Shown here piece by piece: positions 11,957 through 52,977 of a DNA stretch of 64,000 bases. Position 1 is the first letter of the stretch; every line of letters begins with the position of its first letter. Origin of the DNA: an uncultured Bacteriovoracaceae bacterium (GTDB lineage: Bacteria; Bdellovibrionota; UBA2428); assembly GCA_937952285.1 (NCBI GenBank), contig CALFZE010000124.1:36649-100648 (forward strand). The letters are read 5' to 3'. The position numbers were made by a program, and so were the translations under genes. The notes under the pieces were generated by a model that saw nothing but the letters and a program-made list of their open reading frames with translations, ran no database searches and was not told the origin of the DNA.

Positions 11957-12282
11957 CGAAGCGAGGCGCCCTTCGCGCGCGGCGATTCGGGGAAGAGCAC
12001 GCGTTTTCCGTCCGGACGCTCGAAGCCGCTACCTTCGCTCACGAGGGATTCGGCCAAGCGCTCGAGGCTGGCGGGCCCCATGAGCCGTTCCCGCTGGACG
12101 CGCAGGCTCGCGATCTTCGACTCGAACTCGCGGATCTTGGCGCGTTGCTCGGCGACCGCGAAGCCCTTCGTCACGACGAGGGTACGCAACTGGATGTGGA
12201 GCAGGAAGAAAAGCACGCAAAGACCGACGAAGGCGAGAACCTTCAAGACGGCCTTCTGATGATGGTTCAGCGACTCCCCCAA
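11953..12282 (-). CDS. ftsL: Cell division protein FtsL-like
   Basis: 109 aa, one TM helix then a coiled-coil. Positioned between rsmH and ftsI. Confidence 0.6.
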   Translation of the reverse strand: MGESLNHHQKAVLKVLAFVGLCVLFFLLHIQLRTLVVTKGFAVAEQRAKIREFESKIASLRVQRERLMGPASLERLAESLVSEGSGFERPDGKRVLFPESPRAKGASLR

Positions 12283-12317
12283 GCGCTCCCCCTCCGGACG
12301 GCATGTACGCGGTCGTT

Positions 12318-13202
12318 CTAGCGTCGGCGTTCCAAGATCCGAAGCTTCGCGCTTCGGCTTCGCGGGTTCGCCGCGATCTCTTCGTCGGACGGAATCACCG
12401 GACGCTTAGACAGAATATCGAAGGCCCCGTCCTCGGCCAAGTCACGAAAGCGGTTTTTGACCAGACGGTCTTCGATGGAATGAAAAGAGATGATCGCGAG
12501 GCGACCGCCGACCGCGAGCGCGTCCGGGGCCCAACGTAGCAAGGCCTTCAATTCGCCGACTTCGTCGTTGATCGCCATGCGAAAGGCCTGGAAGGCGCGC
12601 GTCGCCGGATGGATACGACTGTCGCTACCGTAGTTCAGGCTCTTCGAGATACGATCCGCCAAGGTCTTGGCGCTCACGAAGGCGTCGCCCCCCCAAGACT
12701 TCAGGTCCCGCGCGAGTTTGCGAGCTTTGGGCTCCTCGCCGAAGCCGTCGAGGATCTCGACGAGGTCCGCCTCGCTCGTCGCCGCGAGCCACTCCGAGAA
12801 CGAAGCGCCGCGCGTGGGGTCCATGCGAAAGTCCGGCGCTTGCTCCGAACGAAGGCTAAGTCCGCGCGCGGGGTCGTCGATCTGAAACGAGGAGATCCCG
12901 AGGTCCGCCAGCACGAACGCGAGCTTCCCGTCGAAGTCGGGGCGCTTCGAAAAAACGCCCGCCCGAAAATCCACGCGAGCCTCGACGCCCTTGTCGTGCG
13001 CGGTTTTCATCACGCGCGCTTGCGCTTCGGGGTCGCGATCGATCGCGAGGCCGCGCCAACGTGGAGAAGCGAGCAAACACTCGGTGAGATGCCCACCGGC
13101 GCCCGCCGTTCCGTCGATCAAAATGGCGTCTTCTTCACGCAAAGGCGAAGTGCGCGCAGCGTCAATTATTTCGGCAAGAAGAACGGACACATGTAAATTC
13201 AT
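12318..13202 (-). CDS. rsmH: 16S rRNA (cytosine1402-N4)-methyltransferase
   Basis: DGTAGAGGH SAM-binding motif, typical RsmH/MraW length (294 aa). Confidence 0.9.
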   Translation of the reverse strand: MNLHVSVLLAEIIDAARTSPLREEDAILIDGTAGAGGHLTECLLASPRWRGLAIDRDPEAQARVMKTAHDKGVEARVDFRAGVFSKRPDFDGKLAFVLADLGISSFQIDDPARGLSLRSEQAPDFRMDPTRGASFSEWLAATSEADLVEILDGFGEEPKARKLARDLKSWGGDAFVSAKTLADRISKSLNYGSDSRIHPATRAFQAFRMAINDEVGELKALLRWAPDALAVGGRLAIISFHSIEDRLVKNRFRDLAEDGAFDILSKRPVIPSDEEIAANPRSRSAKLRILERRR

Positions 13203-13618: not shown

Positions 13619-14452
13619 ATGGGACTTCGCATTAATACGAACCAGATCGCCGTGAACGCTCAACGTAACCTCCGCGGCAACCAAGCCACGCTTCAAGGTT
13701 CTTCCGAGAAGCTCGCTTCGGGTTACCGTATCAACAAGTCGGCCGACGACGCCGCCGGTCTCGCGATCAGCGATAACCTCGGCGGTATGGTCCGCTCGTA
13801 CCAACAAGCGGGTCGTAACGCTCAAGACGGTATCTCCTTCGTTCAGGTCGCCGAAGGCGGCATGGGTGAAGTCGGTAACATGCTCAACCGTCTCCGCGAA
13901 CTCTCGGTCCAAGCCGCTTCCGATACGATCGGCTCGCGTGAACGCGAGTTCCTCGACCGCGAAGCGCAACAGCTCAAACTCGAAGTTGAACGCGTCGCCC
14001 AGTCGACCGAGTTCAACGGCACCAAACTCTTGAACGGTTCGGGCACCAAGCTCGACTTCCAAATCGGCGTGAACAACGACGACTTCCTCGACCGGATCGG
14101 TTACGACCCGTCGCAGACGAACGTTTCCGCGGACGCCCTCGGTATCAGCGGAATCAACCTCGCCGACAAAGCGACGGCGCAAGGTGGTCTTAACAACATC
14201 GATAACGCGATCCTCGTTCTGAACAGCAACCGCGCAACGCTCGGTGCCCTTCAGAACCGCCTGACCTCGACGTACGCGAGCACGGAAATCGCGGTCGAGA
14301 ACTTCAGCGCCGCCAAGAGCCGTATCCGCGACACGGATTTCGCGTCGGTCACGGCTGATATGACCCGCGATATGGTCAAGACCCAAGCCTCGACGGCCGT
14401 CTTGAGCCAAGCGAACTCGTCCACCCAAATGGCCCTCCGCCTCTTGGGCTAA
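13619..14452 (+). CDS. fliC: Flagellin (short, D0/D1-only, 277 aa)
   Basis: MGLRINTNQIAVNAQRNL N-terminus and LSQANSSTQMALRLLG C-terminus. SD AAGGAG. Confidence 0.95.
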   Translation: MGLRINTNQIAVNAQRNLRGNQATLQGSSEKLASGYRINKSADDAAGLAISDNLGGMVRSYQQAGRNAQDGISFVQVAEGGMGEVGNMLNRLRELSVQAASDTIGSREREFLDREAQQLKLEVERVAQSTEFNGTKLLNGSGTKLDFQIGVNNDDFLDRIGYDPSQTNVSADALGISGINLADKATAQGGLNNIDNAILVLNSNRATLGALQNRLTSTYASTEIAVENFSAAKSRIRDTDFASVTADMTRDMVKTQASTAVLSQANSSTQMALRLLG

Positions 14453-15011: not shown

Positions 15012-15845
15012 ATGGGACTTCGTATCAATACTAACCAGATCGCGGTGAACGCTCAGCGCAACTTGCGAAACAACCAAGCCGTTTTGCAAGGCTCTTCCGA
15101 GAAACTCGCTTCGGGTTCCCGGATCAACAAGTCGGCCGACGACGCCGCTGGTCTCGCGATCAGCGACAACCTCGGCGGTATGGTCCGCTCGTACCAACAA
15201 GCGGGTCGTAACGCTCAAGATGGTATCTCTTTCGTGCAAGTCGCCGAAGGCGGCATGGGCGAAATCGGCAACATGTTGAACCGTCTGCGCGAGCTCTCGG
15301 TGCAAGCGTCTTCGGACACGATCGGCAACCGCGAGCGAGAGTTCCTCGATCGCGAAGCGCAACAGCTCAAGCTCGAAATGGAACGCGTCGCCCAGTCGAC
15401 CGAGTTTAACGGCACCAAGCTCCTCTCGGGGCAAGGCACCAAGCTCGACTTCCAAATCGGCGTGAACAACGACGACTTCCTTGACCGGATCTCCTACGAT
15501 CCGTCTCAAACGAACGTCTCGGTTGACGCGCTCGGCATGAGCGGAATCAACTTGTCCGACAAGGCCGCGGCCCAATCGGGTCTCGCCAACATCGACAACG
15601 CGATTCTCGTGTTGAACAGCAACCGCGCGACGCTCGGTGCTCTTCAAAACCGCCTGACCTCGACCTACGCGAGCACGGAAATCGCGGTCGAGAACTTCAG
15701 CGCCGCCAAGAGCCGTATCCGCGACACGGATTTCGCGTCGGTCACGGCTGATATGACCCGCGATATGGTCAAGACCCAAGCCTCGACAGCCGTCTTGAGC
15801 CAAGCCAACCAGTCCACCCAAATGGCTCTCCGCCTCTTGGGCTAA
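15012..15845 (+). CDS. fliC: Flagellin paralog 2 (277 aa), tandem duplicate of 13619..14452
   Basis: Near-identical protein. The last ~200 nt are almost identical at the DNA level while the 5' part carries many synonymous differences. Confidence 0.95.
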   Translation: MGLRINTNQIAVNAQRNLRNNQAVLQGSSEKLASGSRINKSADDAAGLAISDNLGGMVRSYQQAGRNAQDGISFVQVAEGGMGEIGNMLNRLRELSVQASSDTIGNREREFLDREAQQLKLEMERVAQSTEFNGTKLLSGQGTKLDFQIGVNNDDFLDRISYDPSQTNVSVDALGMSGINLSDKAAAQSGLANIDNAILVLNSNRATLGALQNRLTSTYASTEIAVENFSAAKSRIRDTDFASVTADMTRDMVKTQASTAVLSQANQSTQMALRLLG

Positions 15846-16226: not shown

Positions 16227-16342
16227 GTGACTCAGAGCGTTAAACGGTGTCCAGCGGAGGCAACGGAACCTTCGAGGGAGACTTGCAACGCCAAATGACG
16301 CAACGCAGCAATAGTGCGGCGTTGCTTAGGGAGGGTTACTCA

Positions 16343-17173
16343 ATGGGTCTTCGTATTCAAACCAACATTGCGAGCGTGAACGCTCAACGCAACCTGCGCC
16401 AAAATAGCGGCGGGGCCGAACGTTCGATGGAACGCCTCGGCAGCGGCTTCCGAATCAACAAATCCATGGACGACGTCGCCGGCCTCGCGATTAGCGAAAC
16501 GATGAAGGGCCAGCTACGGGGTCTCGGACAAGCCGAGCGAAACGCGCAGGACGGTATCTCCTTCGTGCAGGTGGCCGAATCGGGCCTCAACGAAACCTCC
16601 AACTTGCTCAACCGTGTTCGGGAACTCGCAACCCAAGCCGCGTCCGACACCATCGGCGATACGGAACGTGGGTTCGTGAACATTGAAGTCCAACAGCTCG
16701 TGACCGAAATGGATCGGATCGCGACGACGACCGAATACTCCGGTTCTCGACTCCTGGATGGCTCGGGCCAAACGCTCGACTTCCACGTCGGCTTCCGAGG
16801 CGACCCCTCGAAAAACGTGATCAGCTACGACGCCGGCGCCGCGAACGCACAAACTTCCGCGCTCGGCGTGGATGGAGTGAGCGTTGCCTCTAAAGATGAC
16901 GCACGGGGTACGCTCGACGTCATCGACCAGGCCATCTCGAAAGTCGCCGCGATGCGAGCCGGCTTCGGTGCGATTCAAAGCCGGATGAGCTCGACGATCA
17001 GCAACATCTCGGTCTACCGAGAAGCTCTCAGTGCCGCGAACTCCCGGATTCGAGATGCCGACATGGCCGAAGAATCCGCGAACCTCGCGAAGGCCAACAT
17101 CTTGCAACAAGCCGGTACCGCGGTCTTGGCGCAAGCCAACAGCGCGAACGCTCTCGCCCTGAAGCTGCTCTAG
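16343..17173 (+). CDS. fliC: Flagellin paralog 3 (divergent, about 276 aa)
   Basis: Start taken at the internal MGLRIQTNIASVNAQRNL with SD GGGAGGG, not at the track ORF start 16247. C-terminus ANSANALALKLL. Confidence 0.9.
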   Translation: MGLRIQTNIASVNAQRNLRQNSGGAERSMERLGSGFRINKSMDDVAGLAISETMKGQLRGLGQAERNAQDGISFVQVAESGLNETSNLLNRVRELATQAASDTIGDTERGFVNIEVQQLVTEMDRIATTTEYSGSRLLDGSGQTLDFHVGFRGDPSKNVISYDAGAANAQTSALGVDGVSVASKDDARGTLDVIDQAISKVAAMRAGFGAIQSRMSSTISNISVYREALSAANSRIRDADMAEESANLAKANILQQAGTAVLAQANSANALALKLL

Positions 17174-22998: not shown

Positions 22999-24693
22999 GT
23001 GCCTTCACCCCGCTTCTTCGCGCGCGCGTCGGTCTTCAAGCTGCTCCCGGCCCTCTTGGTCGGGCTGATCCCGTTCGACCTCCTTGACCAGGCTCTGCTC
23101 TCCCGCCTCTACCGCATTCGAGGCGAACGACCGGGCCCGGCGGCCATCAAAGTCGTGCTCGTTCGCGACCCCGAGGAGATGTCGGATTTCCTGCGCGTCG
23201 TGCGGCCGCTCACGGATCTGCCCTGCATCAACTTGAGCCGGTGGAATCCGGGCGAACGTTCCTGTCTCTTTTTGCCGGTCGAGGAGATCTCGCGCCCTCG
23301 GGAGATCTTCACGTTCGCGCCCAGCCTCGCGCGCTTTCTGGGGCGGGAAGTCCCGCCTCCCTTCCACGCCGACGGCGGGATTCAACCGCTCTACTACGGG
23401 AACATTGCCGTCTTCCGGCCCCTGACCGTCCCGGAAGCCATCGCTTCGGTCAAATCGCTCTTCGGTCCCGGCGACATCCTGGTCTTCGCGCCGACGAGTC
23501 CCGTCCCCACGATCCCCGCCGAAACGCCGGCCGGAAGCCTGAACCAAGTCGAGATCGCCTTGAACATGGTGGGCAACGCTTTCGAAGAGCGCTCCCTCGC
23601 TTCGACGTCGCGCACCCTCCAGGTCATGCACTCGGCCGCGGCCTCGGCGCTCGTCGCCTGGATCCTGTACTCCTATCCGATCGTCCTGACGGCGGTGCTC
23701 ACCCTCTTGCTCGGCCTGGTCCAGCTCATCCTCGCGCTCGTCGTCTTCGATACGCTCGACGTCCAACTGCTCGCCGTCGCGCCGCTCGTGGCGATGCTCA
23801 CGGCCTACCTCCTCGGCCTGAGCGATCGGCTCAACAGCCGTGAACGCGAAGCCTGGTCCCTGGAACAGCGATCCGAGAGCCTGCGCGAGCTCGACGAGAT
23901 GAAATCCAATTTTCTCTCCCTCATTTCCCACGACCTCAAGACGCCCATCGCCAAGATGCAGGCCATGCTCGAACGCATGGCCCACGGCGAACTCGGGTCG
24001 CTCACCCCGACGCAGAACGAAACGCTCTCCCGCATCCTCTCGGCGAACGGGCACCTCCAACGAACGATCTCGACGCTGCTGCTGCTCAACCGCATCGAGA
24101 CGGGCCAGTTTCAGATCCGGCGGGAACCCACCGACCTTCTCGAGCTGATCGACGAAACCACGAAGGCGCACCAAGGTCCCGCGCAGGATCGCAACATCCG
24201 CATCGAGAAGGAGCTCGAGCCGCTCTTCCTGGCCGAGGTCGATCGCGGCCTCATCCGCGAAGTCATCAACAACCTCCTGGACAACGCGCTGAAGTACTCG
24301 CCCGCCGCCTCCGTCATTTCGGTCCGCTGCGGAGAGCTCGACAACTCGCCCGACCTTTCCCCGCCGCAACCGGCCATCTGGATCGAGATCCAAGACCGCG
24401 GCACGGGTATCCCGCCGCAGGACCGCGAACGCGTCCGGCAGAAGTTCGTGCGGGGCTCGAACGAAAACACGGCCGCGGACCAATCCGTCAAAGGCACCGG
24501 CCTCGGACTCTTCCTGAGCGGCTTCTTCGTCGAGAAACACGCGGGCCACATGCGCATCGTCTCGCGGACGCGCGGAGAGCCCTACGACCCGGGCTCGCCG
24601 GCCGCCCAGTACTTCGCCGAGGACGAGTCCGGTACCGTGGTGCGGATCAGCCTTCCCGTCGACGAAAGCTTCCTGACGCCCGAAGCCACGTAA
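22999..24693 (+). CDS. Sensor histidine kinase with N-terminal extracytoplasmic sensor domain and multi-TM region
   Basis: H-box SLISHDLKTPIAKM. HATPase_c N, G1 and G2 boxes (NNLLDNALKYS, DRGTGIP, GTGLGL). 564 aa. Confidence 0.8.
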   Translation: MPSPRFFARASVFKLLPALLVGLIPFDLLDQALLSRLYRIRGERPGPAAIKVVLVRDPEEMSDFLRVVRPLTDLPCINLSRWNPGERSCLFLPVEEISRPREIFTFAPSLARFLGREVPPPFHADGGIQPLYYGNIAVFRPLTVPEAIASVKSLFGPGDILVFAPTSPVPTIPAETPAGSLNQVEIALNMVGNAFEERSLASTSRTLQVMHSAAASALVAWILYSYPIVLTAVLTLLLGLVQLILALVVFDTLDVQLLAVAPLVAMLTAYLLGLSDRLNSREREAWSLEQRSESLRELDEMKSNFLSLISHDLKTPIAKMQAMLERMAHGELGSLTPTQNETLSRILSANGHLQRTISTLLLLNRIETGQFQIRREPTDLLELIDETTKAHQGPAQDRNIRIEKELEPLFLAEVDRGLIREVINNLLDNALKYSPAASVISVRCGELDNSPDLSPPQPAIWIEIQDRGTGIPPQDRERVRQKFVRGSNENTAADQSVKGTGLGLFLSGFFVEKHAGHMRIVSRTRGEPYDPGSPAAQYFAEDESGTVVRISLPVDESFLTPEAT

Positions 24694-24779
24694 AATCCTT
24701 CGGATCCCTGGACCCGATCCACGCCTGAAATTCGAGGAATCCTGACGGCGGACTCGCGAGGTCCTGCTAAGATGAACGC

Positions 24780-26252
24780 ATGAGTTCCGATCCCCTCCGC
24801 ATCCTCATCGCCGACGACGAAGCCGATCTTCGGCTCGGCATCCGCTCGCAACTGACGCCCCGAGGTTTTCAGATCGACGAAGCCGCCGACGGCGAAACGG
24901 CCTGGCAGATGATCCAAGCGAATTCCTACGACCTCGTGCTGCTCGACGTCCGGATGCCGGTCCTCGACGGGTTGACCGTGCTCAAGCGCATCCGCGACGA
25001 TCGCTCGACGACGACCGTCGCCGTCATCACGGCGCACGCGAACCTCAAGGACGCCGTCCAGGCCATCCACGACGGCGCTTTCGACTACATCGAGAAGCCG
25101 CTCAAGCGCGAGCGCCTCGACGAGCTCGTCGACAAGGCCCTCGAGGCACGCAGCCTCATCGCCCAGATCGCTTTCTCCCGCCCGCGCGAAGCCGCGGCCG
25201 CGCCCGAGGCAACGGCGGAGACGAGCCCGGATCCGCGCCAGGACTTCATCGGCCATTCCCACCCGATGCAGCGGATCTTCAAGCTCATCGAGCGCCTCGC
25301 GAACGTGAACACGAGCGTCTTGATCCGCGGCGAGAACGGCACGGGCAAGGAGCTCGTCGCCAAGGCGATCCACTTCAATTCTCCGCGCAAGCATCGCCCC
25401 TTCGTCGCCGTGAACTGCGGCGCGATCCCCGAGGATCTCATGGAGAGCGAGTTCTTCGGGCACGAGAAAGGGGCCTTCACGGGCGCCCACACGCGCAAGA
25501 TCGGGAAGTTCCAGTTCGCCTCGGGCGGGACCCTTTTTCTCGACGAGGTGGGCGACCTGCCGCTGCCCATGCAGGTCAAGCTCCTGCGCGTCCTCCAGGA
25601 ACAGAAGATCACTCCCGTCGGCTCGAACCGCGAAATGAAAGTCGACGTCCGCATCGTCGCCGCGACGAACCGCGACCTCGAAAAGATGATGGAGACGAGT
25701 CGCTTCCGGAATGACCTCTTCTACCGGCTCAACGTCATGCCCGTGTTCCTGCCGCCCCTGCGCGAACGCACGGACGACCTGCCCTACCTCGTTCCCCATT
25801 TCATCCAGAAGTTCAACGCGAAGCACGGCCGCAACGTGCGGGGGATCACGGCCGACGCGCTCGCCAAACTCAAGACCTACGACTGGCCGGGCAACATTCG
25901 CGAGCTCGAGAACGCGATCGAGCACGCCTTCGTCGTGGAAACGGGCGACGAGCTGACCTACGAAAGCTTTCCGGGCCACATCTCCGAAGCGCTGCTCGAC
26001 AAGGAAGAAGGCTGGTCGCTCCCGGGCTCGACCGGTAGCGGCGGCGCGAGCGGCACGATCCGGGCCGAGGTCGCGCTTTCGCTGAACTACCACGAAGACA
26101 AGGAACGCTTCGAACGCGAGTTCATCATCCAGGCCCTGCGCTCGAACGGCGGCCGGATCAACCAGACGTGCGAACATGCGGGCATCCCCAAGAACACGCT
26201 GCTGCGCAAGATGAAGAAGTACGGCATCAACGCCAAGGATTACGAGTCATGA
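24780..26252 (+). CDS. Sigma-54-dependent response regulator (NtrC family: REC + AAA+ + Fis-type HTH)
   Basis: REC with DLVLLDVRMP. GENGTGKELVAKAIH Walker A. GAFTGA motif. ESFPGHIS...LRKMKKYGI C-terminal HTH. Confidence 0.9.
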   Translation: MSSDPLRILIADDEADLRLGIRSQLTPRGFQIDEAADGETAWQMIQANSYDLVLLDVRMPVLDGLTVLKRIRDDRSTTTVAVITAHANLKDAVQAIHDGAFDYIEKPLKRERLDELVDKALEARSLIAQIAFSRPREAAAAPEATAETSPDPRQDFIGHSHPMQRIFKLIERLANVNTSVLIRGENGTGKELVAKAIHFNSPRKHRPFVAVNCGAIPEDLMESEFFGHEKGAFTGAHTRKIGKFQFASGGTLFLDEVGDLPLPMQVKLLRVLQEQKITPVGSNREMKVDVRIVAATNRDLEKMMETSRFRNDLFYRLNVMPVFLPPLRERTDDLPYLVPHFIQKFNAKHGRNVRGITADALAKLKTYDWPGNIRELENAIEHAFVVETGDELTYESFPGHISEALLDKEEGWSLPGSTGSGGASGTIRAEVALSLNYHEDKERFEREFIIQALRSNGGRINQTCEHAGIPKNTLLRKMKKYGINAKDYES

Positions 26253-42804: not shown

Positions 42805-42954
42805 GTTTGCCAGTCCGGCCGACCGCTCCGAAATCCGGGAATAGCTGCCCGCCGCACGCTTCCGCGCTCGCTAAACCTCACCCTCACCTGGCCCCCCGCT
42901 TGCTGAGACGGAACCCGGAGCGCATGTCGCGCTCCATCTTCACAGGGAGTCCGC

Positions 42955-43599
42955 ATGAAAAATCTCGTCTTCGTTTCTTTGCTTCTCGCCACGCCCGCCT
43001 TCGCCCAAACCAAACTCTCCATCGTCGAGTTCGAAAACAAGGCGAACTCGGGCGACTGCCGCTTCGACGGTTGGGCCTGGTGGAATCAAAACCTCGGTAG
43101 CGCCTTCAAAGAAATGCTCGTCGGCGAGATCAAGAAGCACTCACGCTTCAAGCTCTACGAACGCGCCACCATTCGAAAGGTCTACGAAAACGAGCACGAT
43201 CTCGTGAACTCCGAGAACGCCCCCAAGAAAGCCAAGGGCCAGTTCCAGGTCGCGGATTTCACCCTCGCCGGATCGGTCAGCGAGTTCGAATACTGCTCCT
43301 CCGGACGCACGGGCGGCATCCGCCTCGGCGGACTCGGCATCCTGAACGACCTCTCGATCGGCGGAGAAACCCAAGAAGCCAAGGTCGTCGTCGACATCCG
43401 CGTCATCAACACCGAAACGGGCGAGATCACGGCCACCACGCAAGGCGAAGGCACGGTCAAAGATGGCAAGCTCGATCTGGGCGTGAGCCTCGGGCCCGTC
43501 TCGACGAACCTCGGCGGCCACGAGGGCACGCCGATCGCCAAGGCCGCACGCCTCGCCATCCACAACGCGACGAACGAAATCGTCTCGCGGATTCCTTAG
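42955..43599 (+). CDS. CsgG-family (curli assembly/transport component-like) periplasmic protein, no lipobox Cys
   Basis: KLSIVEFENKAN, RFKLYERATIRKVYENEHDL and ADFTLAGSVSEF match CsgG/COG1462 family blocks. Signal peptide ends AFAQ. Confidence 0.55.
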   Translation: MKNLVFVSLLLATPAFAQTKLSIVEFENKANSGDCRFDGWAWWNQNLGSAFKEMLVGEIKKHSRFKLYERATIRKVYENEHDLVNSENAPKKAKGQFQVADFTLAGSVSEFEYCSSGRTGGIRLGGLGILNDLSIGGETQEAKVVVDIRVINTETGEITATTQGEGTVKDGKLDLGVSLGPVSTNLGGHEGTPIAKAARLAIHNATNEIVSRIP

Positions 43600-43600
43600 A

Positions 43601-45467
<1,867 letters not shown>

Positions 45468-45484
<17 letters not shown>

Positions 45485-45716
45485 TTGTCTCTTCTGGCTT
45501 CTTTGCCTTAGGACCTACCCCGAGACTGGAGCCCGGGAAAGTCTCGAAGAGCGAAGTCTGACCGGGAAGCTGTTCGGCATAACGCTGCAGAATTAAATCG
45601 ATTCCCATCCGAATGTACTCGGCGATCGGGACGCGGGTGCGCTCGTGCAACTGCTTGAGCCCTTGCACCTGCTCCTCCGTCAGGTAGACGGTCGTCGAGA
45701 TCTTCTTCCGGGCCAT
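45468..45716 (-). CDS. Ribbon-helix-helix (CopG/Arc-like) protein upstream of lepA
   Basis: Start at the internal [43 protein letters not shown]. 82 aa. Overlaps the lepA start by 17 nt. Confidence 0.55.
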
Positions 45717-45823
45717 ACATGTATGGTAACACGTTGCACCAAAACCTGGAAAGCTATTTATGTTATGATTTCCATATCTTGAGAAGTAGAGTCCAAATCC
45801 CTCTTCTGAGCTTGGCCGCGAGC

Positions 45824-46432
45824 ATGGCTTTATGGAGCTGCTCGTCGAGCTCGAAGACTCCGCCAAGCTCGACGAGTAAAGGCTCGGACGAAAGCTCGGT
45901 TTCTCGCGAAGCCAAACTGCTGGGCCCGCGCCAACGTTTCCAGCCTCTCGCCGTCGGCGGCGACGGCTTTCCGCGCATGACGAAAGTTTTCGCGGAAGGC
46001 ACGCAAAAACTCGAACGCATCGATTTCGATTTCAATGCGGACGGACGCGTCGACTTCATCCAGTATTTCGATCCGACCGGCGCTTGGGTCCGCAAGGAAG
46101 CCTCCGATCTGGACGGGGACGGCCTCTTCGACGTCCTGAGCACTTTCGACAAGAAAGGCGCCAAGGCTCCCGAGCTCGTCGCGCAGGAATTCAATGCCCG
46201 CTACGAGAACCGTCCTTCCGTTTGGAAGGAGTATCGCAACGGCGTGCTCGCAAAGCGGGCCTTAGACCGCAAGGGTCGCGGCCGGCCGGACTATTGGGAG
46301 ATCTACGAGGGAGAGCGCCTCCTTCGCGTCGAGCGCGACGATGACGGCGACGGCCAACCCGACAAAGGCGCGCGCTTCCCGCGGGTCGTCGCGCCCGAAG
46401 GCAGCGAACCGGGGCGTCCCAAGCTTCGCTGA
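45824..46432 (+). CDS. Lipoprotein with three DxDGDG-type (EF-hand/dockerin-like) acidic loop motifs
   Basis: Start at MALWSCSSSSK (lipobox LWSC). Motifs DFNADGRVD, DLDGDGLFD, DDDGDGQPD. Confidence 0.5.
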   Translation: MALWSCSSSSKTPPSSTSKGSDESSVSREAKLLGPRQRFQPLAVGGDGFPRMTKVFAEGTQKLERIDFDFNADGRVDFIQYFDPTGAWVRKEASDLDGDGLFDVLSTFDKKGAKAPELVAQEFNARYENRPSVWKEYRNGVLAKRALDRKGRGRPDYWEIYEGERLLRVERDDDGDGQPDKGARFPRVVAPEGSEPGRPKLR

Positions 46433-46537
46433 AGTCCGGATTCCTCCGCGAGTTTCCGGAACGCCGGACGACGCCCGCGCCGACTAAATAAATAATAGCG
46501 ACTTAGGTCTGGCACGTCGGTTGCTTCGCCGTGCGGC

Positions 46538-47479
46538 ATGAAGAGCCCACTCGCTACCCCTTCATCCCCCACCTCGCATTTCTTTCCCCAGGGACTGAGT
46601 CGTTCCCCGACGCCGGCCAAGCCTCCGAAGCCGGTTAGCGTCGCGGTGGAGCATCCGCTCCTCGAAGAGTGGTTCTGGGGACTCGGCCAGGCGCTCGCCG
46701 AACTCCGGGCGGACATCGAGATCGCCGCCTCGAAAGACATCAACATCCTCGTCGTCGGCGAAACGGGGACCGGCAAGGAATACGTCGCCTCGCTGCTCCA
46801 CGAACAGCGTCTCCGTCGAATGCGCCGTCGGCCCTCCGAGTCGACTCCCTTCGTGCCGGTGAACTGCGGCGCGATCCCCGAGAACTTGGCCGAGTCCATG
46901 CTCTTCGGCCACGAGCGCGGGGCCTTCACTTCCGCCCGCGATCGGCGAGCCGGAAAGTTCGAAGTCGCCGGCCAGGGCACGCTCTTCCTCGACGAGATCC
47001 AATGTCTCGACAAGAACCTGCAGGCCAAATTGCTGCGGGTTCTGCAGACGCGCAAGGTCGAGGCGCTCGGCGCGCGCGAGGCCGTCGACATCGACTGCCA
47101 GATCGTCGCGGCGAGCAATATCCCCCTCGAGATTCTCGTGAACAACCAACGCTTTCGACGGGATCTCTACTACCGCTTGAACGTCTTTCCGCTTTACCTG
47201 CCGCCGCTGCGCAAGCGGAAGGAAGACCTGCCGACGATCGTCCGCGGCCTGCTTCGACGCCTCGAGAAGACCCTGGGCTTCACCGGCCTCGAGGTCGAAG
47301 CCTCCGCCTTCGAGCAGATCGTTCGCTACGACTGGCCCGGAAACATCCGCGAGCTCGAGCACGCGCTTCTGTACGCCGCGCTTCGCAGCCGTACGGGAAG
47401 CATCACTTCCGCCCATCTGCCCAGCTTCGTGACGGGTGCCCTTAAAGCTTACTTGAGCGAAGGGGAGTGGGACCTATGA
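46538..47479 (+). CDS. Stand-alone sigma-54 activator AAA+ core (no receiver, no HTH)
   Basis: VVGETGTGKEYVA Walker A, a GAFTSA variant of GAFTGA, and DWPGNIRELE. 313 aa, ends 45 aa after the AAA+ lid with no Fis-type HTH. Confidence 0.75.
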   Translation: MKSPLATPSSPTSHFFPQGLSRSPTPAKPPKPVSVAVEHPLLEEWFWGLGQALAELRADIEIAASKDINILVVGETGTGKEYVASLLHEQRLRRMRRRPSESTPFVPVNCGAIPENLAESMLFGHERGAFTSARDRRAGKFEVAGQGTLFLDEIQCLDKNLQAKLLRVLQTRKVEALGAREAVDIDCQIVAASNIPLEILVNNQRFRRDLYYRLNVFPLYLPPLRKRKEDLPTIVRGLLRRLEKTLGFTGLEVEASAFEQIVRYDWPGNIRELEHALLYAALRSRTGSITSAHLPSFVTGALKAYLSEGEWDL

Positions 47480-47484
47480 TCCGC

Positions 47485-48264
47485 TCACTTGACCTTCTCG
47501 ACCTTGAAGTCCCGCGAAGCTTTGGTCTGGAGCAGTCTTTCGCCTTCGCGCATGGCCCAGACCTCTTGAACGAAGGAGCCGACGCTAACCTGGAACCAGG
47601 GCGCCCCGTCCCCGGACTTGATGGGGCGCATGTAGGCATCGTTGAATCCGAGTTTCCGCAGGGCGCCAACCTTGGCGGTCGCTTCCTCGGCGGTGGCGAA
47701 ACTCTGAACGCGAACCGTGAACTGGTTCGAGATCGGCGTGAACACGTCGCGGGCCGCGGGCTTTCTTTCGAAGAGCGAGCGCACCGATTTTTCGGGTCCC
47801 TTCTCGAGCCGATTCGCCTCGGCGGCTTCGGCGCGCGCGATACGCGCGTCTTCGGCTTTGACCTCGGGAGGTTTTGGGCTGGCTTCGCCGGCCCATCCCG
47901 GATTCGCGCCAAAATGAGCGGCCGCATCCGCGACCGACTTTGGATCCGTACTCTGTCCTTCCTGCATAACGAGCTCGCGCAGCGCCTCTTGCTTGGCTTC
48001 CGCGTAGGCCGCCTTCAAATCGGCGCCAGCCTCGGCGATCGGCGCGACGGTCGCCGGCTTGGCATCGACCGAAGCGGGCGCGCGCCCTCCGTGTTCTTCG
48101 CCGTGCGCGACCTCGGCGACGAGCGGTGACGCCGGCCGCATGCCCATCCCAACCATGATCCCAAACGTGAACACCAACCCGGAGAAAAGAACCATGATCC
48201 CCAAGAGCGTCCATACTTCGAAACGGTCGAGCTCGAATCTCGTGCGCGGAGTCATCCTCCCCAT
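47485..48264 (-). CDS. SPOR-domain cell-division protein (DedD/FtsN-like)
   Basis: One TM (WTLLGIMVLFSGLVFTFGIMV), a Pro/Ala/Glu-rich linker, and a C-terminal SPOR domain (FTVRVQSFATAEEATAKVGALRKLGFNDAYM). Confidence 0.65.
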   Translation of the reverse strand: MGRMTPRTRFELDRFEVWTLLGIMVLFSGLVFTFGIMVGMGMRPASPLVAEVAHGEEHGGRAPASVDAKPATVAPIAEAGADLKAAYAEAKQEALRELVMQEGQSTDPKSVADAAAHFGANPGWAGEASPKPPEVKAEDARIARAEAAEANRLEKGPEKSVRSLFERKPAARDVFTPISNQFTVRVQSFATAEEATAKVGALRKLGFNDAYMRPIKSGDGAPWFQVSVGSFVQEVWAMREGERLLQTKASRDFKVEKVK

Positions 48265-48553
48265 TGTATCGGCCCGCGGGGGGACCGCGCTCGACAAATT
48301 CCCGGCGTCGGAAAACCGGCGCCGCGGGCAAGCTCTCTCGGAATATCTCATCCTCACGGCCCTCGTGGCCGTCGCCTCCATCGGCGTCATCCAGCTTCTG
48401 GGCAGCAACCTGAACCGCTCCCTGGGCGAAGTCGCCGCGGCCCTGGGGGGAGAAAGAAAGGAAATAACCAAGAAAACGGTCGAGGAAAAACATTACGAAG
48501 TCCGCGACCTGGGCGATTTCAACAAGGCCATGGAAGACAAGGACAGCAAATGA
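48242..48553 (+). CDS. flp: Flp-family type IVb prepilin
   Basis: Leader ...DKFPASENRRRG then mature QALSEYLILTALVAVASIGVIQLL. This is the Flp G/xxxEY motif (compare Caulobacter PilA ...KDESGATAIEYGLIVALIAV). The start is uncertain: GTG at 48242 or ATG at 48194. Confidence 0.55.
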   Translation: MRGVILPIVSARGGTALDKFPASENRRRGQALSEYLILTALVAVASIGVIQLLGSNLNRSLGEVAAALGGERKEITKKTVEEKHYEVRDLGDFNKAMEDKDSK

Positions 48554-48876
48554 CCGCCCGTCAAAAAGGAAACGTCCTCGTCGAGTGTCTGGTGCTGACG
48601 CCGGTGTGGGTCGCGCTTTTCTCGATCGCCTTCGGCGGCCTCGGCCAGCTCGCGATCCGCGAGGCCTTCCGCGCGAAGGCCTACCTGCTCGCCCGCGCCC
48701 ATCTCTACGGGAATGACCGCGGCGTCTGTTCGATCTCGTTCCCCAAGATCCCCGTCTTCGCCGAAAGCGTCGCTTGCCGGTGCTCGGGAGCGGGCACGGT
48801 AAGCGTCGACGTCCGGGGGCGGGGCCCTTTTCGCTACACGCTCGACATCGACCTGGTTAACGGAGGTGTCTCGTGA
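48550..48876 (+). CDS. tadE: TadE-like pseudopilin
   Basis: RQKGNVLVECLVLTPVWVALFSIAFGG matches the TadE/TadF N-terminal motif (G-x-x-x-VE-F/C-A/L). ATGA overlap with flp. Confidence 0.6.
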   Translation: MTARQKGNVLVECLVLTPVWVALFSIAFGGLGQLAIREAFRAKAYLLARAHLYGNDRGVCSISFPKIPVFAESVACRCSGAGTVSVDVRGRGPFRYTLDIDLVNGGVS

Positions 48877-49412
48877 TCGCCCTCTTCCTTGCCTTCCTGG
48901 GAGCAATTTTTCTTTCGGGACTCGAGACCAATCCGATTTCATTCGTTTCCGAAGTGGCCAGCGGCATTCACAAGACGTCCCGACTGGATCACGAAGTCGC
49001 TCGCCTTTCCGATTCGGCGGCGAACGCCATTCAGAACGTCGAACTCGCGAACGACCGTCTCGAGAAACTCAAGGTGCAGTGCCTCGCGCTCAATTTGATC
49101 GGCGCCATCGTGGAAGCTCCGCTCCTGCGGGGGATCGGCGAGGCCATCGCGCTGGAACAGGACTTCGCTTGGCGCGCCTGGACGTTGTCGAGCCGAACTT
49201 CGGGCGACTTCGCCATCCATCACCGCGAGCCCTTGCGCGGGGTACCCGGCGCCTGCCTCATTCCGGGCTCACTCGCCTGGCGAAGCTTCGGCCATCCCAT
49301 CGTGTCCCTCACCTGGTCCGAACAACCTTCGCGAGCCGGATCGAACGTCTACCTTTCGCTTCGCGGCGAGGCGTATTGGACCTACCACGGCCAGGGAGTA
49401 CGGGCCCTATGA
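48873..49412 (+). CDS. Membrane protein of unknown function in the Flp/TadE mini-operon
   Basis: 179 aa, N-terminal hydrophobic helix MIALFLAFLGAIFLSGL. ATGA overlap with tadE. Confidence 0.45.
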   Translation: MIALFLAFLGAIFLSGLETNPISFVSEVASGIHKTSRLDHEVARLSDSAANAIQNVELANDRLEKLKVQCLALNLIGAIVEAPLLRGIGEAIALEQDFAWRAWTLSSRTSGDFAIHHREPLRGVPGACLIPGSLAWRSFGHPIVSLTWSEQPSRAGSNVYLSLRGEAYWTYHGQGVRAL

Positions 49413-49539
49413 TGCCGCTCGAAGCACTCGTCCTGCTGCTCGCAACTTGCGTCCTGGCCGCGGGAATCGTCGAGGTCGCCCAGAGGGCGGACCTTTTTCA
49501 CGCGGAACTTCTCAGAACATCCTACGGGAGATTCGAATC

Positions 49540-50034
49540 ATGTCGTCGACCGACAAATTCGCCTGGCTTGAACCTTTGACGCCTTCGACCGCGGAAATCC
49601 CCGCCGAGGTTCCGGTCGTCCCGGATCGCTACGAGCGAATCAAGAAGCTGCGTCCTTTCGCGCCCTGGATCGGAATCACGATCGCGTTTGCCGTCCTCAT
49701 GAGTTTTCGCCGCGAGGCTCCCGCCCGGATCGAAGGCGGCGCCCCGACGACGATCGAAGTCGTCGCGCCCGTTCTGCCGCTCGCGCCTAGGACCACGCTC
49801 CGAAACGACCAGTTCCAGATCTTTCCCGTTCGAAAGTCCCAGCTCACAAAGACCCAACTTCAGGACATCGTACGTCCCGAGCAGGTCCGCCACTTCAACG
49901 GCACGATCCGAACGCGCAAACTCGTCTCGCCCGACCGTCCCCTTCGCTGGTCCGATCTCGAGTGGACGAAACCCGAACGCGGCGCCGGACGCCCCCAAGT
50001 TTTCTACGGTAATCCCGGAAAGGACACCCCATGA
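49540..50034 (+). CDS. Membrane protein with possible SAF/CpaB-like domain (164 aa)
   Basis: Start at MSSTDKF with SD GGGAG. TM WIGITIAFAVLMSF. The family call is weak. Confidence 0.35.
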   Translation: MSSTDKFAWLEPLTPSTAEIPAEVPVVPDRYERIKKLRPFAPWIGITIAFAVLMSFRREAPARIEGGAPTTIEVVAPVLPLAPRTTLRNDQFQIFPVRKSQLTKTQLQDIVRPEQVRHFNGTIRTRKLVSPDRPLRWSDLEWTKPERGAGRPQVFYGNPGKDTP

Positions 50035-50540
50035 GCACGACCCTAGGCTGCCTTGTCTTTCTTCGGCTGGCTTCCGCCAGCGCCCAGCTTCCCGCGCACG
50101 TGGAGTCCCTGCTGCTCGAGCGGGTGCGCGCGGGGATCGAGAGCCAAGCACCCGACCTCGACATCCGTTTCGACCGCGACGACTGCGAGGACCGGGCGAC
50201 CTACGCGTTCGGCCTCGACTCGCTCGTGCTCGAAGGCGCTTCGAAACGATGGACGGGACGGGCACTCGTCGCGATACCCGACCTGCTCGACGGCCGGCGA
50301 ATCGACTACGGTCCCTACCTGCGACACGGAGACGGTGATACGCCACGAACGGTCGTCCCCATCCCGGTGGCGCGCGACGAATCGAGCGCCCGGCCTTGGC
50401 TCTTGGGCCTTGGCGGTGGCGCGATCGGTGCCGGGGCCGGCGCCATTTTCAGCCCGAACGACGCCAGCCGTCCATTGAACGCCGTCGTCTTCGGACTTGG
50501 CGGAGCCCTCCTCGGCAGCATCCTTGGTTTTGTTTTCTAA
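50031..50540 (+). CDS. Secreted protein with C-terminal glycine-zipper transmembrane segment (169 aa)
   Basis: Signal peptide ending ASASAQ. C-terminal LGLGGGAIGAGAGAIF...VVFGLGGALLGSILGFVF. ATGA overlap with the upstream gene. Confidence 0.45.
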   Translation: MSTTLGCLVFLRLASASAQLPAHVESLLLERVRAGIESQAPDLDIRFDRDDCEDRATYAFGLDSLVLEGASKRWTGRALVAIPDLLDGRRIDYGPYLRHGDGDTPRTVVPIPVARDESSARPWLLGLGGGAIGAGAGAIFSPNDASRPLNAVVFGLGGALLGSILGFVF

Positions 50541-50556
50541 TTATTGGAGTGACATC

Positions 50557-51798
50557 ATGAAACGATTTCTTCTGACTTACATGACTTTCGTTCTGAGCGC
50601 GTGCGCCTTCGTCCCCGATCCTTCGATGAGACCGACGTCGGAAAGCGGCCCGCCCCCGAAGATGCCGGAGGTGATCGAGACTTCACCAAGCGAAGTCGAA
50701 ACGCCGGACACAAAACCGGCCGCGAAAGTTTCCGGTGAAACGCCGATCTCCCTCTCGAAACTCGAATTGAAGGTCGTCGGAGAGACGCAGCCGGACCAAT
50801 ACTCGGTTCTCGTCCGTTGGAACTACTCGGAAAGCCGTCACTACAAGCTCGTCCGCCAAGCCCAACACAAGACGGAGCTTATCGTGCTCGGGGTTCACGA
50901 CCAGGGCATGGGAGAGTACCGCGACCAAACGGTCGACGCCGGCGGCCGCTACGTCTACGCGCTCCAAGCGCAAGACGTCGCCGCGCGCACGGAGCTTCTG
51001 CAAAAAATCGCGATTCCTAAGGACTTCGTCATTCAGGGTGAAATGAGTGCGGGAGCGATTCCCACCGGAACGACGCGTTTGTTTCTCGCCAAGAACGCCG
51101 TGCTTCGCTCGGTCGCGCCGCTCACGGCGACGCGTATCGAAGTCCAGGAAATCGTCGCCGCGGAAGGATCCCGAATCGAGCCGGTTTCGGGACACGACGT
51201 CGTGCCGAACGGTTCGCCGGCGCCCTTCTCGGTGAAAGCCCTCAGCGCGAGGGGTTTCCTCTCCGTTTCGACCCGAGGATTCATCGGAGAAAGAGGCCGG
51301 GACGGCGGAAGCGGGGCCACGGGAGCCGCCGGCCCTCCCGGCATGCCTAGCTTCATCGCCGAGGAACAGGCCGGGCACGACTGCGGGAACATGCGGCGGG
51401 TCGGAGGATTCTGCCGCGCCGTTAAGGTTTGTCAGTCCGAACCGACGAACGGCGGCGGTGGCAACGTCGGCGGTCCCGGGGGGAACGGCGGAATCGGCGC
51501 GACGGGTTCCGACTCGGTCCGGGTTCGGATCGAGATCAAAGACGCCAAACATCTCGTCGTCCGTTACGACTCCGAAGGTGGAGCGGGGGGCGCGGGAGGA
51601 AGCGGTGGAGCGGGCGGGGCCGGCGGCGCGGGCGGCTCGCCCGGAACCCATACGCCGCCCTGCGCGAGAAGGGCCAGCGCCGGGCCGAGAGGCCCCCAAG
51701 GCCCGCGCGGTCAAGACGGAGCACGCGGCGCCCCCGGCAAAGCGCTCGATCCTTGCCTCATCTTGGGAGATACGACCCTAGGACTTTGCCGAGACTAA
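50557..51798 (+). CDS. Lipoprotein with C-terminal collagen-like (Gly-X-Y) repeat region
   Basis: Start at MKRFLLTYMTFVLSACAF (lipobox LSAC, SD GGAGTG). C-terminal GGAGGAGGSGGAGGAGGAGGSPG...GPRGPQGPRGQDGARGAPGKA. Confidence 0.6.
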   Translation: MKRFLLTYMTFVLSACAFVPDPSMRPTSESGPPPKMPEVIETSPSEVETPDTKPAAKVSGETPISLSKLELKVVGETQPDQYSVLVRWNYSESRHYKLVRQAQHKTELIVLGVHDQGMGEYRDQTVDAGGRYVYALQAQDVAARTELLQKIAIPKDFVIQGEMSAGAIPTGTTRLFLAKNAVLRSVAPLTATRIEVQEIVAAEGSRIEPVSGHDVVPNGSPAPFSVKALSARGFLSVSTRGFIGERGRDGGSGATGAAGPPGMPSFIAEEQAGHDCGNMRRVGGFCRAVKVCQSEPTNGGGGNVGGPGGNGGIGATGSDSVRVRIEIKDAKHLVVRYDSEGGAGGAGGSGGAGGAGGAGGSPGTHTPPCARRASAGPRGPQGPRGQDGARGAPGKALDPCLILGDTTLGLCRD

Positions 51799-51802
51799 GT
51801 TC

Positions 51803-52267
51803 TTAGAGGGAAGCCGGCGTCGGCAGCGGATCCAGCCGGCATCCCTTCGACGCGAGCTTGGTCAGAGCGCCCGCCCGGGCTTCGACCACGAAAATCGCGG
51901 GGCCTTTGCTTTCGTAGACGGGGAGCTTGTCTTCGCGCTGGAGCGGGCTCGTTCCCTTCATCAAGGTGGCCGAAACGAAGTGCCCCCGACGATCGAAAAA
52001 GGCGATGTCGATGTCGAAGGGGACGTTTTTCATCCAAAAGGTTTGGACCTCCTCGGAAGTGAAGACGAAGAGCATGCCTTTGCCGACGGGAACTTCCGTT
52101 CGATTCATGAGCCCAATGCGACGGGACTCGGGCTTGTCCGCGACCTCCAGCGAGAAGGCCTGATCGCAAACCCGGAACGATTTGGCGGGTAGAGACTGCG
52201 GCTTCGTTTGCGCGAAGCTCGACGAGGTCAATACGAGGGTGACGAGGAAGAAAGAAATCCGACGCAT
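51803..52267 (-). CDS. DUF192 (COG1430) secreted protein
   Basis: GLMNRTEVPVGKGMLFVF...FWMKNVPFDIDIAFFD matches DUF192 conserved blocks. Has a signal peptide. Confidence 0.6.
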   Translation of the reverse strand: MRRISFFLVTLVLTSSSFAQTKPQSLPAKSFRVCDQAFSLEVADKPESRRIGLMNRTEVPVGKGMLFVFTSEEVQTFWMKNVPFDIDIAFFDRRGHFVSATLMKGTSPLQREDKLPVYESKGPAIFVVEARAGALTKLASKGCRLDPLPTPASL

Positions 52268-52977
52268 CTTTCGAAGTGTGGCCAAGAAAGGCCCGTGATT
52301 TCAACCCATTTTCGATAAACCGCGATTTCTTGTGCGGCGCTCAGGCTTTTTCCGCGGTCGGCAAAGAAGGTCCAAAGCTTGGCGAAATCCGGAACTTGCA
52401 CGCCGAGGCCGTGGGACCACGCCGCGCGCTCGATCTCGCTCCAGGCACCGGACTTGAGGATCTCGGCCGCAAAATCCCCGTAGCCGAGGTGGTGAGCCGC
52501 CCAAAGCCAGAAAGCGATGCGGGGAAGTTTGCCGAGTTTCTCGAGCTCCGGAAATGAGGCATCACGCAAGAAACGGCCAAGGCCGCGAAAGAAGCTCGGA
52601 TCCCCGAGCCCCTCCGGCACCAGATCGCGAATCAAGGCGACCGCAAAAAGGCCGCAATCCAGTCGATAGTAGGAACTCCGCAGGTGGGGAAAGGACTCGC
52701 GCAGATCGACGCGGTCGAGACGCCAAAGCGCCACGCCGCCGCCCTCGGGATCACGGGGGACGACGAGATGCGCGGTGCCGAAATTGCCGGGATCGAGCGA
52801 GGCGCCGAAACGGCGCTTGGAAGACTGGGCGCCTTTCGCGACGGCCGAGATCTTTCCCTCTTCGGCGGAAATCAGGCGCACGATGGAGTCTTTCTCACCG
52901 AGCGGCAGGCTTCCCAAAATCAGCACGGGAAGCGCGATCGTATCGCCCGCCCGACGCGGAGCGGTCGCGGACGTCAC
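52228..52977 (-). CDS. recO: DNA repair protein RecO
   Basis: N-terminal OB-fold block ILGSLPLGEKDSIVRLISAEEGKISAVAKGA. 249 aa. Confidence 0.7.
   Translation of the reverse strand: MTSATAPRRAGDTIALPVLILGSLPLGEKDSIVRLISAEEGKISAVAKGAQSSKRRFGASLDPGNFGTAHLVVPRDPEGGGVALWRLDRVDLRESFPHLRSSYYRLDCGLFAVALIRDLVPEGLGDPSFFRGLGRFLRDASFPELEKLGKLPRIAFWLWAAHHLGYGDFAAEILKSGAWSEIERAAWSHGLGVQVPDFAKLWTFFADRGKSLSAAQEIAVYRKWVEITGLSWPHFERCVGFLSSSSPSY

Follow-up and report, generated by a model that had tools for sequence, protein, structure and literature searches.

A stretch of 64,000 nucleotides (nt) from contig CALFZE010000124.1 of an uncultured Bacteriovoracaceae bacterium in the phylum Bdellovibrionota (hereafter the window) carries, at 46.5-51.8 kb, a gene for a sigma-54 activator that consists solely of the AAA+ core, a sigma-54 promoter directly in front of that gene, and a nearby six-gene module coding for an Flp-type prepilin and five further small proteins. 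We read this locus, with a probability of about 0.55, as a self-activating sigma-54 switch linked to a satellite set of pilins and minor pilins that depends on a Tad machine whose genes lie elsewhere. Bdellovibrio cannot invade its prey without Flp/Tad pili. The contig has a GC content of 63% and derives from a bioreactor-sludge metagenome (ENA ERZ936775), and the genes in this region were delimited from reading frames with high third-position GC.

The activator gene (46538-47479, + strand) encodes a 313-aa protein with Pfam matches to Sigma54_activat (PF00158, E = 4e-58) and AAA_lid_14 (E = 1e-15). It retains a Walker A motif (GETGTGKE), a Walker B motif (LFLDEI) and the string RFRRDLYYRL, together with a GAFTSA loop, which differs from GAFTGA by a glycine to serine change at position 5 while keeping the key threonine at position 4; the string GAFTSA found no mention in the searchable literature. 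No match to REC, GAF, PAS or HTH_8 was detected in the protein with Pfam or NCBIfam, and neither a receiver nor a helix-turn-helix (HTH) domain can be recovered by shifting the ends of the gene, because a stop lies just upstream and a convergent SPOR gene lies 5 nt downstream. A preliminary description, made from the letters of the stretch, had called this protein a bare AAA+ core with a GAFTSA loop, and the call is borne out by the Pfam matches, by the bounded reading frame, which leaves no DNA-binding domain to be gained from a corrected start or stop, and by homologues that are built alike.

A search of 5.8 billion proteins recovered these homologues as a clade of about 68 proteins (clusters) of 194-344 aa, all with the AAA+ core only and 45-60% identical to the query, whose bit scores of 246-370 stand apart from those of bacterial enhancer-binding proteins (bEBPs) bearing REC or HTH domains (at most 241). 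GAFTSAR is kept in 66 of the 68 members, the other two reading GSFTSAR and GTFTSAR. The only source names in the clade are ‘Bdellovibrionales’ and ‘Bdellovibrionota’ metagenome-assembled genomes (MAGs), and there is no protein from a cultured organism among the activator homologues or among the Flp homologues listed (the best 120 of 204). Outside the core, clade members share the N-terminal motifs SHFFPxG(L/I)P and WFWG (within 46538-46680) and a C-terminal tail, LPxx(L/I)TGxLxx(Y/F)LxxGxW (within 47400-47479), and these terminal peptides are candidate docking sites for a partner or an anti-activator. A minority of bEBPs lack the sensory domain, the DNA-binding domain or both, and type Ic, represented by FleT, is without both (PMC3162934). 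Since the window protein lacks both domains, we assign it to type Ic, alongside FleT. One report describes an isolated bEBP AAA+ domain that activates sigma-54 promoters promiscuously and from solution (PMC3844500).

The promoter in front of the activator is the sigma-54 (-24/-12) sequence TGGCACGTCGGTTGCT (46510-46525, + strand), the sole match without mismatch to TGGCAC-N5-TTGCW on either strand of the 64 kb. It ends 12 nt before the activator ATG, and the C of its -12 element lies 14 nt before the ATG. Of 28 related loci with GC contents of 38-63%, 27 have a site with a score of 18 or more out of 20.5 immediately before the activator, against a background of 2-6 sites of this score per 13-21-kb locus, both strands counted, in six tabulated loci. 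The ATG at 46538 is taken as the real start because the N-terminal SHFFP motif is conserved, and a nearly leaderless transcript is therefore predicted. This leaderless-type spacing is seen in the window (46523-46538) and in three other loci (L003, 9987-10001; L007, 9888-9902; L010, 6459-6471), and the low-GC relatives have a 25-77-nt leader with a Shine-Dalgarno sequence before the activator. Across the GC-rich members, the -12 element stands 13-15 nt from the activator ATG, a distance that predicts messages with no leader or with one of 2-3 nt.

The link between activator and pilin genes is best seen by comparing related loci, of which about 30 distinct ones were gathered by contig look-ups and two collection scans. 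When co-occurrence was checked in this way, the six-gene module and the activator were found to be kept together in conserved order in about 30 loci of uncultured Bdellovibrionota (GC 30-63%), the common order being LepA, RHH_3, (lipoprotein), activator, [SPOR], flp, tadE-like gene, 179-aa pilin-like gene, small gene, SAF gene, gene for an anchored protein, DUF192 and RecO. Two architectures occur. In architecture A, comprising the window and about 17 other loci, the SPOR gene sits on the opposite strand between the activator and flp. In architecture B, found in about 12 loci, mostly of 35-47% GC (L006, L012-L017, L034, L035, L039, L041 and L098), there is no SPOR gene, and the activator stop is followed after 10-25 nt, which hold only a ribosome-binding site, by the flp start. 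In architecture B, activator and pilin module make up one operon behind the sigma-54 promoter, and, as judged from this gene arrangement, architecture B provides the strongest support for coupling and makes a real argument for it. The activator lies 5′ of flp in every locus with enough upstream sequence, and at least 32 of the 68 activator clusters match an Flp-family member in longest-contig size, including contigs of 1.5-6 kb.

The two architectures also differ just upstream of the flp ribosome-binding site, where an inverted repeat, GCCAA-ATTA-TTGGC (at most two mismatches), is present in 12 of 17 architecture A loci and in none of architecture B. It is located at 11759-11772 in L003, 11811-11824 in L005, 11617-11630 in L007 and 11890-11903 in L008. 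The window has a degenerate copy, GACAAATTCCCGGC (48293-48306), recognized by its likeness to the repeat, and in both the window and L003 the repeat falls within the predicted Flp leader. FliA drives the tad operon in B. bacteriovorus, and for this reason the repeat was considered as a FliA (sigma-28) promoter, its reverse complement GCCAATAA resembling the -10 element GCCGATAA; the idea was dropped by inspection, as no consistent TAAA -35 is suitably spaced and the element would point toward SPOR. As a separate observation, one Bacteriovoracaceae MAG contig of architecture B (L017) carries two tandem copies, at 9054-10228 and 11538-12712, of a segment of roughly 2.5 kb (LepA fragment, RHH_3, activator, flp); either regulator and pilin genes have been duplicated together, or the assembly is at fault.

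The six module genes lie on the + strand and encode the Flp-type prepilin (48242-48553, 103 aa, GTG start), a TadE-like pseudopilin (48550-48876, 108 aa), a 179-aa pilin-like protein (48873-49412), a 56-aa protein (49409-49579), a 164-aa SAF protein (49540-50034) and a 169-aa C-terminally anchored protein (50031-50540). From flp onward, the successive junctions are ATGA, GTGA, ATGA, a 40-nt overlap between the 56-aa and SAF genes, and ATGA, followed by a 16-nt gap before a lipoprotein gene. The preliminary description had reported a chain at 48242-50540 joined by ATGA overlaps; the overlapping chain is confirmed, but the junction of the tadE-like and 179-aa genes is GTGA, and the 56-aa gene had been missed. 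The intervening SPOR-domain membrane protein (47485-48255, - strand; Pfam SPOR, E = 3e-4) is encoded convergently with the activator and divergently from flp, and its start, MTPRTRFELDRFE, agrees with its homologues and has a GGAGG Shine-Dalgarno sequence. The divergent 5′ ends of flp and SPOR do overlap, as had been noticed (with a proposed extent of about 20-70 nt): the overlap is 14 nt with the homologue-supported SPOR ATG at 48255, 23 nt with the ATG at 48264, and about 70 nt if the gene caller's flp start at 48194 is used. Because of the overlap of 14-23 nt, the promoters of flp and SPOR should each lie inside the coding sequence of the other. A conserved TACAAT is found on the - strand just upstream of the SPOR Shine-Dalgarno sequence. 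A sigma-70 promoter and terminator scan of 45400-52400 yielded nothing above shuffled expectation, and Rfam and tRNA scans of the window returned no matches.

The Flp prepilin was identified by its processing motif and family profile. It has a 29-aa leader ending in glycine, with the cleavage context RRRG/QALSEYLILTALVAVASIGVIQ, and GQxxxEYLILxAL is invariant in seven orthologues, which agrees with the G/XXXXEY plus stretch of about 20 hydrophobic residues used to define the short Flp/Fap prepilins. Its C-terminus carries a conserved HYxxxDLGDF. The family profile matches the Caulobacter Tad pilin PilA (PDB 8u1k, E = 0.003), and among 204 relatives at E ≤ 0.001, the best 120, which were listed, are 78-147 aa long and include some JGI-named Flp proteins and five with PF04964. 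Five other module proteins and the lipoprotein had no significant match in Pfam or NCBIfam. The TadE-like protein, called from its G-x4-E motif, has a class III-type signal (KG/NVLVE), a hydrophobic helix, ARAxLYG and two conserved cysteines; across 13 orthologues G7, R49, L52, Y53 and the two cysteines are invariant, while E12 is at least 90% conserved. A sequence search of the Protein Data Bank (PDB) with the tadE-like profile gave no match. The earlier proposal of an Flp/pseudopilin module thus draws support from the invariant Flp motif, from G7 and the near-invariant E12 of the TadE-like protein, and from the PilA profile match.

Two further products are pilin-like. The 179-aa protein, characterized by hydrophobicity and cysteine positions, has a hydrophobic segment from residue 1, no leader, and cysteines at about residues 67 and 124, and orthologues of 165-179 aa occur in all loci. 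The 56-aa protein reads MMPLE followed by a transmembrane (TM) segment, so that its N-terminus resembles a mature pilin (Glu at position 4-5). It was recognized by positional conservation: 43-75-aa reading frames with M-x-x-x-E and then a hydrophobic stretch are found at the same position in 14 of 14 related loci, and the gene is called in L005, L007 and L008 and absent from the ENA gene calls of the window contig.

The remaining two products are predicted to be membrane anchored. For the SAF protein, an AlphaFold2 (AF2) model built from a 44-sequence alignment reached a mean predicted local distance difference test (pLDDT) score of 84.4; the alignment held small representatives of 137-188 aa, four long repeat proteins among the 48 matches having been excluded, and a single-sequence model (pLDDT 42) was discarded. 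The predicted topology comprises a cytoplasmic N-terminus with (E)F(P/S)W, a TM helix at residues 30-55 and a periplasmic SAF domain at about 70-142. Foldseek matched the model to FlgA (3vjp/3tee, E = 2e-3, root-mean-square deviation (RMSD) 2.1 Å over 73 columns), to the Tad alignment protein RcpC (9gzr, E = 3e-2) and to type III antifreeze proteins. Pfam SAF is detected in 11 of the 44 relatives (best E = 7e-4), and a PDB sequence search with the SAF profile returned nothing useful. No match to the RcpC beta-clip domain (PF16976) was found in the SAF protein, whose chain ends about 20 residues past the SAF domain. The 164-aa protein therefore models as a mini-RcpC, and the SAF-like membrane protein named in the preliminary description was called correctly (pLDDT 84, with the FlgA, RcpC and type III antifreeze matches). 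The 169-aa protein has a short N-terminal hydrophobic signal or anchor, two conserved cysteines and a glycine-rich C-terminal membrane segment. Its orthologues (155-185 aa) are present in all loci, and in most of them the C-terminal TM segment reads WLPWxLG...GG; the Gly-zipper label given to it earlier suits the window and L003 but not the other loci.

The module encodes no machine of its own. The larger open reading frames (ORFs) across the 64-kb window were scanned with Pfam and include no CpaF/TadA, TadB/C, secretin or prepilin peptidase, and tblastn with B. bacteriovorus Bd0110, Bd0111 and Bd0112 (TadB, TadZA and RcpA; queries from the supplement of PMC5430801) found none of them in the window or in at least L001-L019. 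The lack of assembly machinery near the Flp and pseudopilin genes, as first described, thus holds on both searches. By contrast, L046 yielded a tad locus of the canonical Bdellovibrio type, which includes an flp of its own and a TadZA 54% identical to Bd0111.

Taken together, these features suggest how the locus could work. The module would supply an Flp major-pilin-like subunit, three small pilin-like proteins, of which one has a prepilin-peptidase site and two have leaderless hydrophobic N-termini, and two bitopic inner-membrane proteins. As it encodes no ATPase, platform, secretin or peptidase, processing and polymerisation of its products would have to fall to a remotely encoded Tad machine or to another type IV filament machine, which would thereby gain an alternative filament or tip. 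The activator, having no DNA-binding domain, would act from solution on the sigma-54 holoenzyme, and its promoter position and domain content point to a positive-feedback switch in which it turns on its own promoter. In the low-GC sister lineage, one transcript from the sigma-54 promoter would run through the activator gene and on into the flp operon. A SPOR gene would have been inserted between activator and flp in the window's lineage, where the link would be through read-through or indirect, via a factor at the inverted repeat upstream of flp. As far as gene order can tell, operonic coupling of activator and pilin set is apparent in the sister lineage and is carried over from there to the window.

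The chief alternative is that the activator and the flp module are independent neighbours, with the activator as a sigma-54 co-activator of general or other use (serving, for example, a CsgG-like gene, flagellar genes or a FleT-like partnership with a full-length bEBP), and with flp on its own sigma-70 or other promoter and under a repeat-binding factor. Several observations weigh against coupling and in favour of this alternative. In none of the loci, the window and the rest of architecture A included, do the 200 nt before flp contain a GG-N10-GC site with a score of 18 or more, and a SPOR gene on the other strand separates the activator from flp throughout architecture A, where the inverted repeat specific to that architecture stands just upstream of flp. 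A sigma-54 linkage of flp is therefore not upheld at the promoter level in the window: the sites front the activator and the CsgG-like gene, and none precedes flp. Because the promoter fronts the activator and not flp, we can only infer control of flp by the activator in the window. The CsgG-family lipoprotein gene (214 aa, 42955-43599) lies 3.6 kb upstream of the activator and has the second near-consensus sigma-54 site, TGGCCCCCCGCTTGCT (42889-42904, + strand), 51 nt upstream; the L003 counterpart has a site at 6396-6411 ahead of a CsgG-like gene at 6466, and this gene may be another target of the DNA-binding-less activator. The window also holds a kinase and a full NtrC-type bEBP (22999-26252). 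The housekeeping flanks (RecG-GreA-CarAB-PyrB-LepA ... DUF192-RecO) are syntenic in every locus, and since they are as well conserved as the module, adjacency alone is unable to separate coupling from inherited gene order. The pilin assignments carry their own weaknesses: Pfam Flp_Fap (PF04964) stays below threshold for the window protein (16.8 bits vs a cut-off of 32.2, E = 0.006), and Pfam TadE (PF07811) matches one of the 13 TadE-like orthologues (E = 0.004) and not the window protein, whose TadE-like call is based on the G-x4-E motif only. What speaks against independence is that in a dozen architecture B loci only a ribosome-binding site separates activator and flp, and that the activator stands immediately 5′ of the module wherever enough upstream sequence is available. 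We regard independent neighbours as possible but doubtful, and a self-activating switch linked to the satellite pilin set as the better reading.

Two other readings concern the proteins at either end of the locus. The lipoprotein gene downstream of the module (50557-51798, + strand; 413 aa, lipobox LSAC) had been reported with a collagen-like Gly-X-Y tract and proposed as a cargo or partner. The tract is real and was understated: there are four runs of 7-8 triplets each (residues 241-264, 299-319, 341-361 and 376-396), the last flanked by cysteines. A low-complexity artefact is disfavoured, since none of 20,000 shuffles of the C-terminal part gave three or more such runs, and the L003 homologue has an identical four-tract layout. 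Pfam Collagen (PF01391) remains below its cut-off (E = 0.022, 15 bits vs 27.2), NCBIfam SclB gives E = 0.43, and the lipoprotein does not have the long uninterrupted Gly-X-Y region of Scl-type collagen-like proteins. If the lipoprotein were a functional cargo or tip adhesin of the pilus, its position on the same strand 16 nt after the operon and the conservation of the four tracts in the single orthologous locus would be explained, but it is missing from most loci with a complete six-gene module (L002, L005, L007 and L008 lack it, and tblastn gave no match in the other loci), and only five homologues exist in the 5.8 billion proteins searched. Tracts of 7-8 triplets are, moreover, short for a stable triple helix in bacterial collagen-like proteins. 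We consider the cargo reading improbable, and the idea of a conserved partner fails on this distribution, which is confined to the window and one other lineage; at the operon's 3′ end, the lipoprotein is a passenger specific to its lineage, not a defining component. At the other end, the AAA+ protein could be an assembly motor rather than a transcription factor, within a self-contained, Tad-independent apparatus. Such a role would fit the lack of machinery nearby and the constant adjacency of the AAA+ gene, but against it stand the protein's complete set of sigma-54 interaction features (PF00158 at 4e-58, with GAFTSA nearly invariant), the conservation of a sigma-54 promoter in front of its gene, and its location in the cytoplasm, without a membrane or platform partner. 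To our knowledge, type IV filament systems all use PilB/TadA-family ATPases, to which a motor of this type would run counter. We give this last reading very little credence.

Several known systems resemble parts of the locus. All Bdellovibrio and like organisms (BALOs) examined carry flp genes outside the tad operon (Avidan et al., PMC5430801), among which flp4 is essential for predation, is not controlled by FliA and has no known regulator, while flp3 is silent (PMC5430801). The HD100 genes flp3 (bd3297) and flp4 (bd4000) are, like the window Flp, G/XXXXEY prepilin genes away from the tad operon in the same phylum; they are described as single genes (PMC5430801), whereas the window has a six-gene module with an adjacent sigma-54 activator. 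The locus was considered as a counterpart of flp4 and rejected, as flp4 adjoins the RHS element bd2719 (PMC3818213) and the two are not syntenic. The HD100 tad genes are dispersed over at least six loci, and PilD processes Flp1 (Tesseur et al., bioRxiv 10.64898/2026.07.08.737194), while in the Kil/Tad pilus of Myxococcus, remote minor-pilin clusters form interchangeable tips (Herrou et al., PMC12075869). Like the window module, these kilLMN-paralogue Tip clusters and the dispersed HD100 tad loci are small remote clusters of pilin-like genes in predatory bacteria. By gene content, however, the products of the Tip clusters are trimers of TadE/F/G type that include a large KilN/TadG protein (PMC12075869), while the window module has no large TadG-like protein and adds the major-pilin-like Flp, the mini-RcpC and the second bitopic protein. 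RcpC/CpaB (9gzr) shares with the modelled SAF protein an N-terminal anchor and a periplasmic SAF domain (RMSD 2.1 Å over 72 columns); the SAF protein differs in being a single-domain protein of 164 aa, with no C-terminal beta-clip domain(s) and no detectable sequence similarity.

On the regulatory side, PilS-PilR places a sigma-54 promoter on a type IVa pilin gene, with the activator binding an enhancer. The window is alike in coupling a pilin gene to a sigma-54 activator and differs in having the promoter in front of the activator gene and an activator devoid of a DNA-binding domain. FlgR of Helicobacter and CtcC of Chlamydia act from solution without an enhancer-binding domain and retain a receiver controlled by a kinase, while the window activator is without a receiver. 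FleT works with the DNA-binding FleQ in the flagellar hierarchy. FleT of Rhodobacter (Cereibacter) sphaeroides is likewise confined to the AAA+ core and tied to a surface appendage regulon (PMC3162934), but the window clade is set apart by the GAFTSA loop, by terminal motifs of its own, by the sigma-54 promoter in front of the activator gene and by the neighbouring pilin operon. Since flp genes outside tad operons, dispersed tad genes and remote tip clusters have been reported, there is precedent for a satellite pilin cluster in this phylum, and with FleT-type activators also known, the first description of the combination as unusual was overstated. What is new is that six genes, for a major pilin, three pilin-like proteins, a mini-RcpC and a second anchor, form a fixed set, that an AAA+-only activator carrying GAFTSA constantly accompanies this set, and that the sigma-54 promoter belongs to the activator gene itself.

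The locus therefore offers a concrete conserved case of an extra pilin set travelling with a dedicated regulator, and the set is predicted to depend on sigma-54, to be subject to positive feedback and to need a remote Tad machine. The roughly 68 clusters add a well-populated natural clade to a very short list of activators without sensory and DNA-binding domains, and prompt one to ask what keeps such an activator inactive and what makes it specific. More tentatively, a probably predatory uncultured clade may have recruited the minimal self-activating switch solely to turn an alternative Tad filament or tip set on and off. A second type of pilus would in that case be expressed in an all-or-none (bistable) manner, and the terminal peptides of the activator would receive the input of a partner.

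A soil lineage (GC about 0.68) with related Flp proteins (33-36% identity) was examined as an independent instance of the linkage and set aside. Its activator is a kinase-coupled REC-AAA-HTH protein of the ordinary NtrC type with GAFTGA, and for this reason does not belong to the AAA+-only clade. In L050 (5437-8219) and about 25 similar soil loci (GC 0.67-0.70), flp divergently adjoins the histidine kinase and REC-AAA-HTH activator, and strong sigma-54 sites, CGGCACGGGGTTTGCT and CGGCACACGGCTTGCT, are present upstream of flp in L056 (flp followed by TadZA and TadB) and L083. Sigma-54 control of Flp pilins may be more widespread.

Immediately upstream of the activator region are two further genes. 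A small RHH_3 DNA-binding protein (45468-45716, - strand) might serve as a DNA-binding partner or as a local regulator; in all loci, its gene overlaps the start of lepA and runs divergently from the activator region. Between RHH_3 and the sigma-54 promoter, a 237-aa probable lipoprotein (45719-46432, + strand) has repeated DxDxDG-type motifs and weak matches to DUF6802 and Lsa25.6, and is confined to SPOR-containing loci. The other scanned ORFs of the window are almost all housekeeping or unrelated, including dcw genes, flagellins, asparaginase, LptC/A, RecG, GreA, CarAB, PyrB, the CsgG-like lipoprotein, LepA and RHH_3 on the upstream side, and DUF192, RecO, an LPG-synthase-like membrane protein, a sugar epimerase, glycosyltransferases, SSB, Lon, LppC and DnaJ on the downstream side. 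Bdellovibrio-like organisms typically have multiple fliC copies, and three + strand ORFs of 277-308 aa in the window (13619-14452, 15012-15845 and 16247-17173), separated by gaps of 400-560 nt, are likely flagellin paralogues, the third being a flagellin by Pfam.

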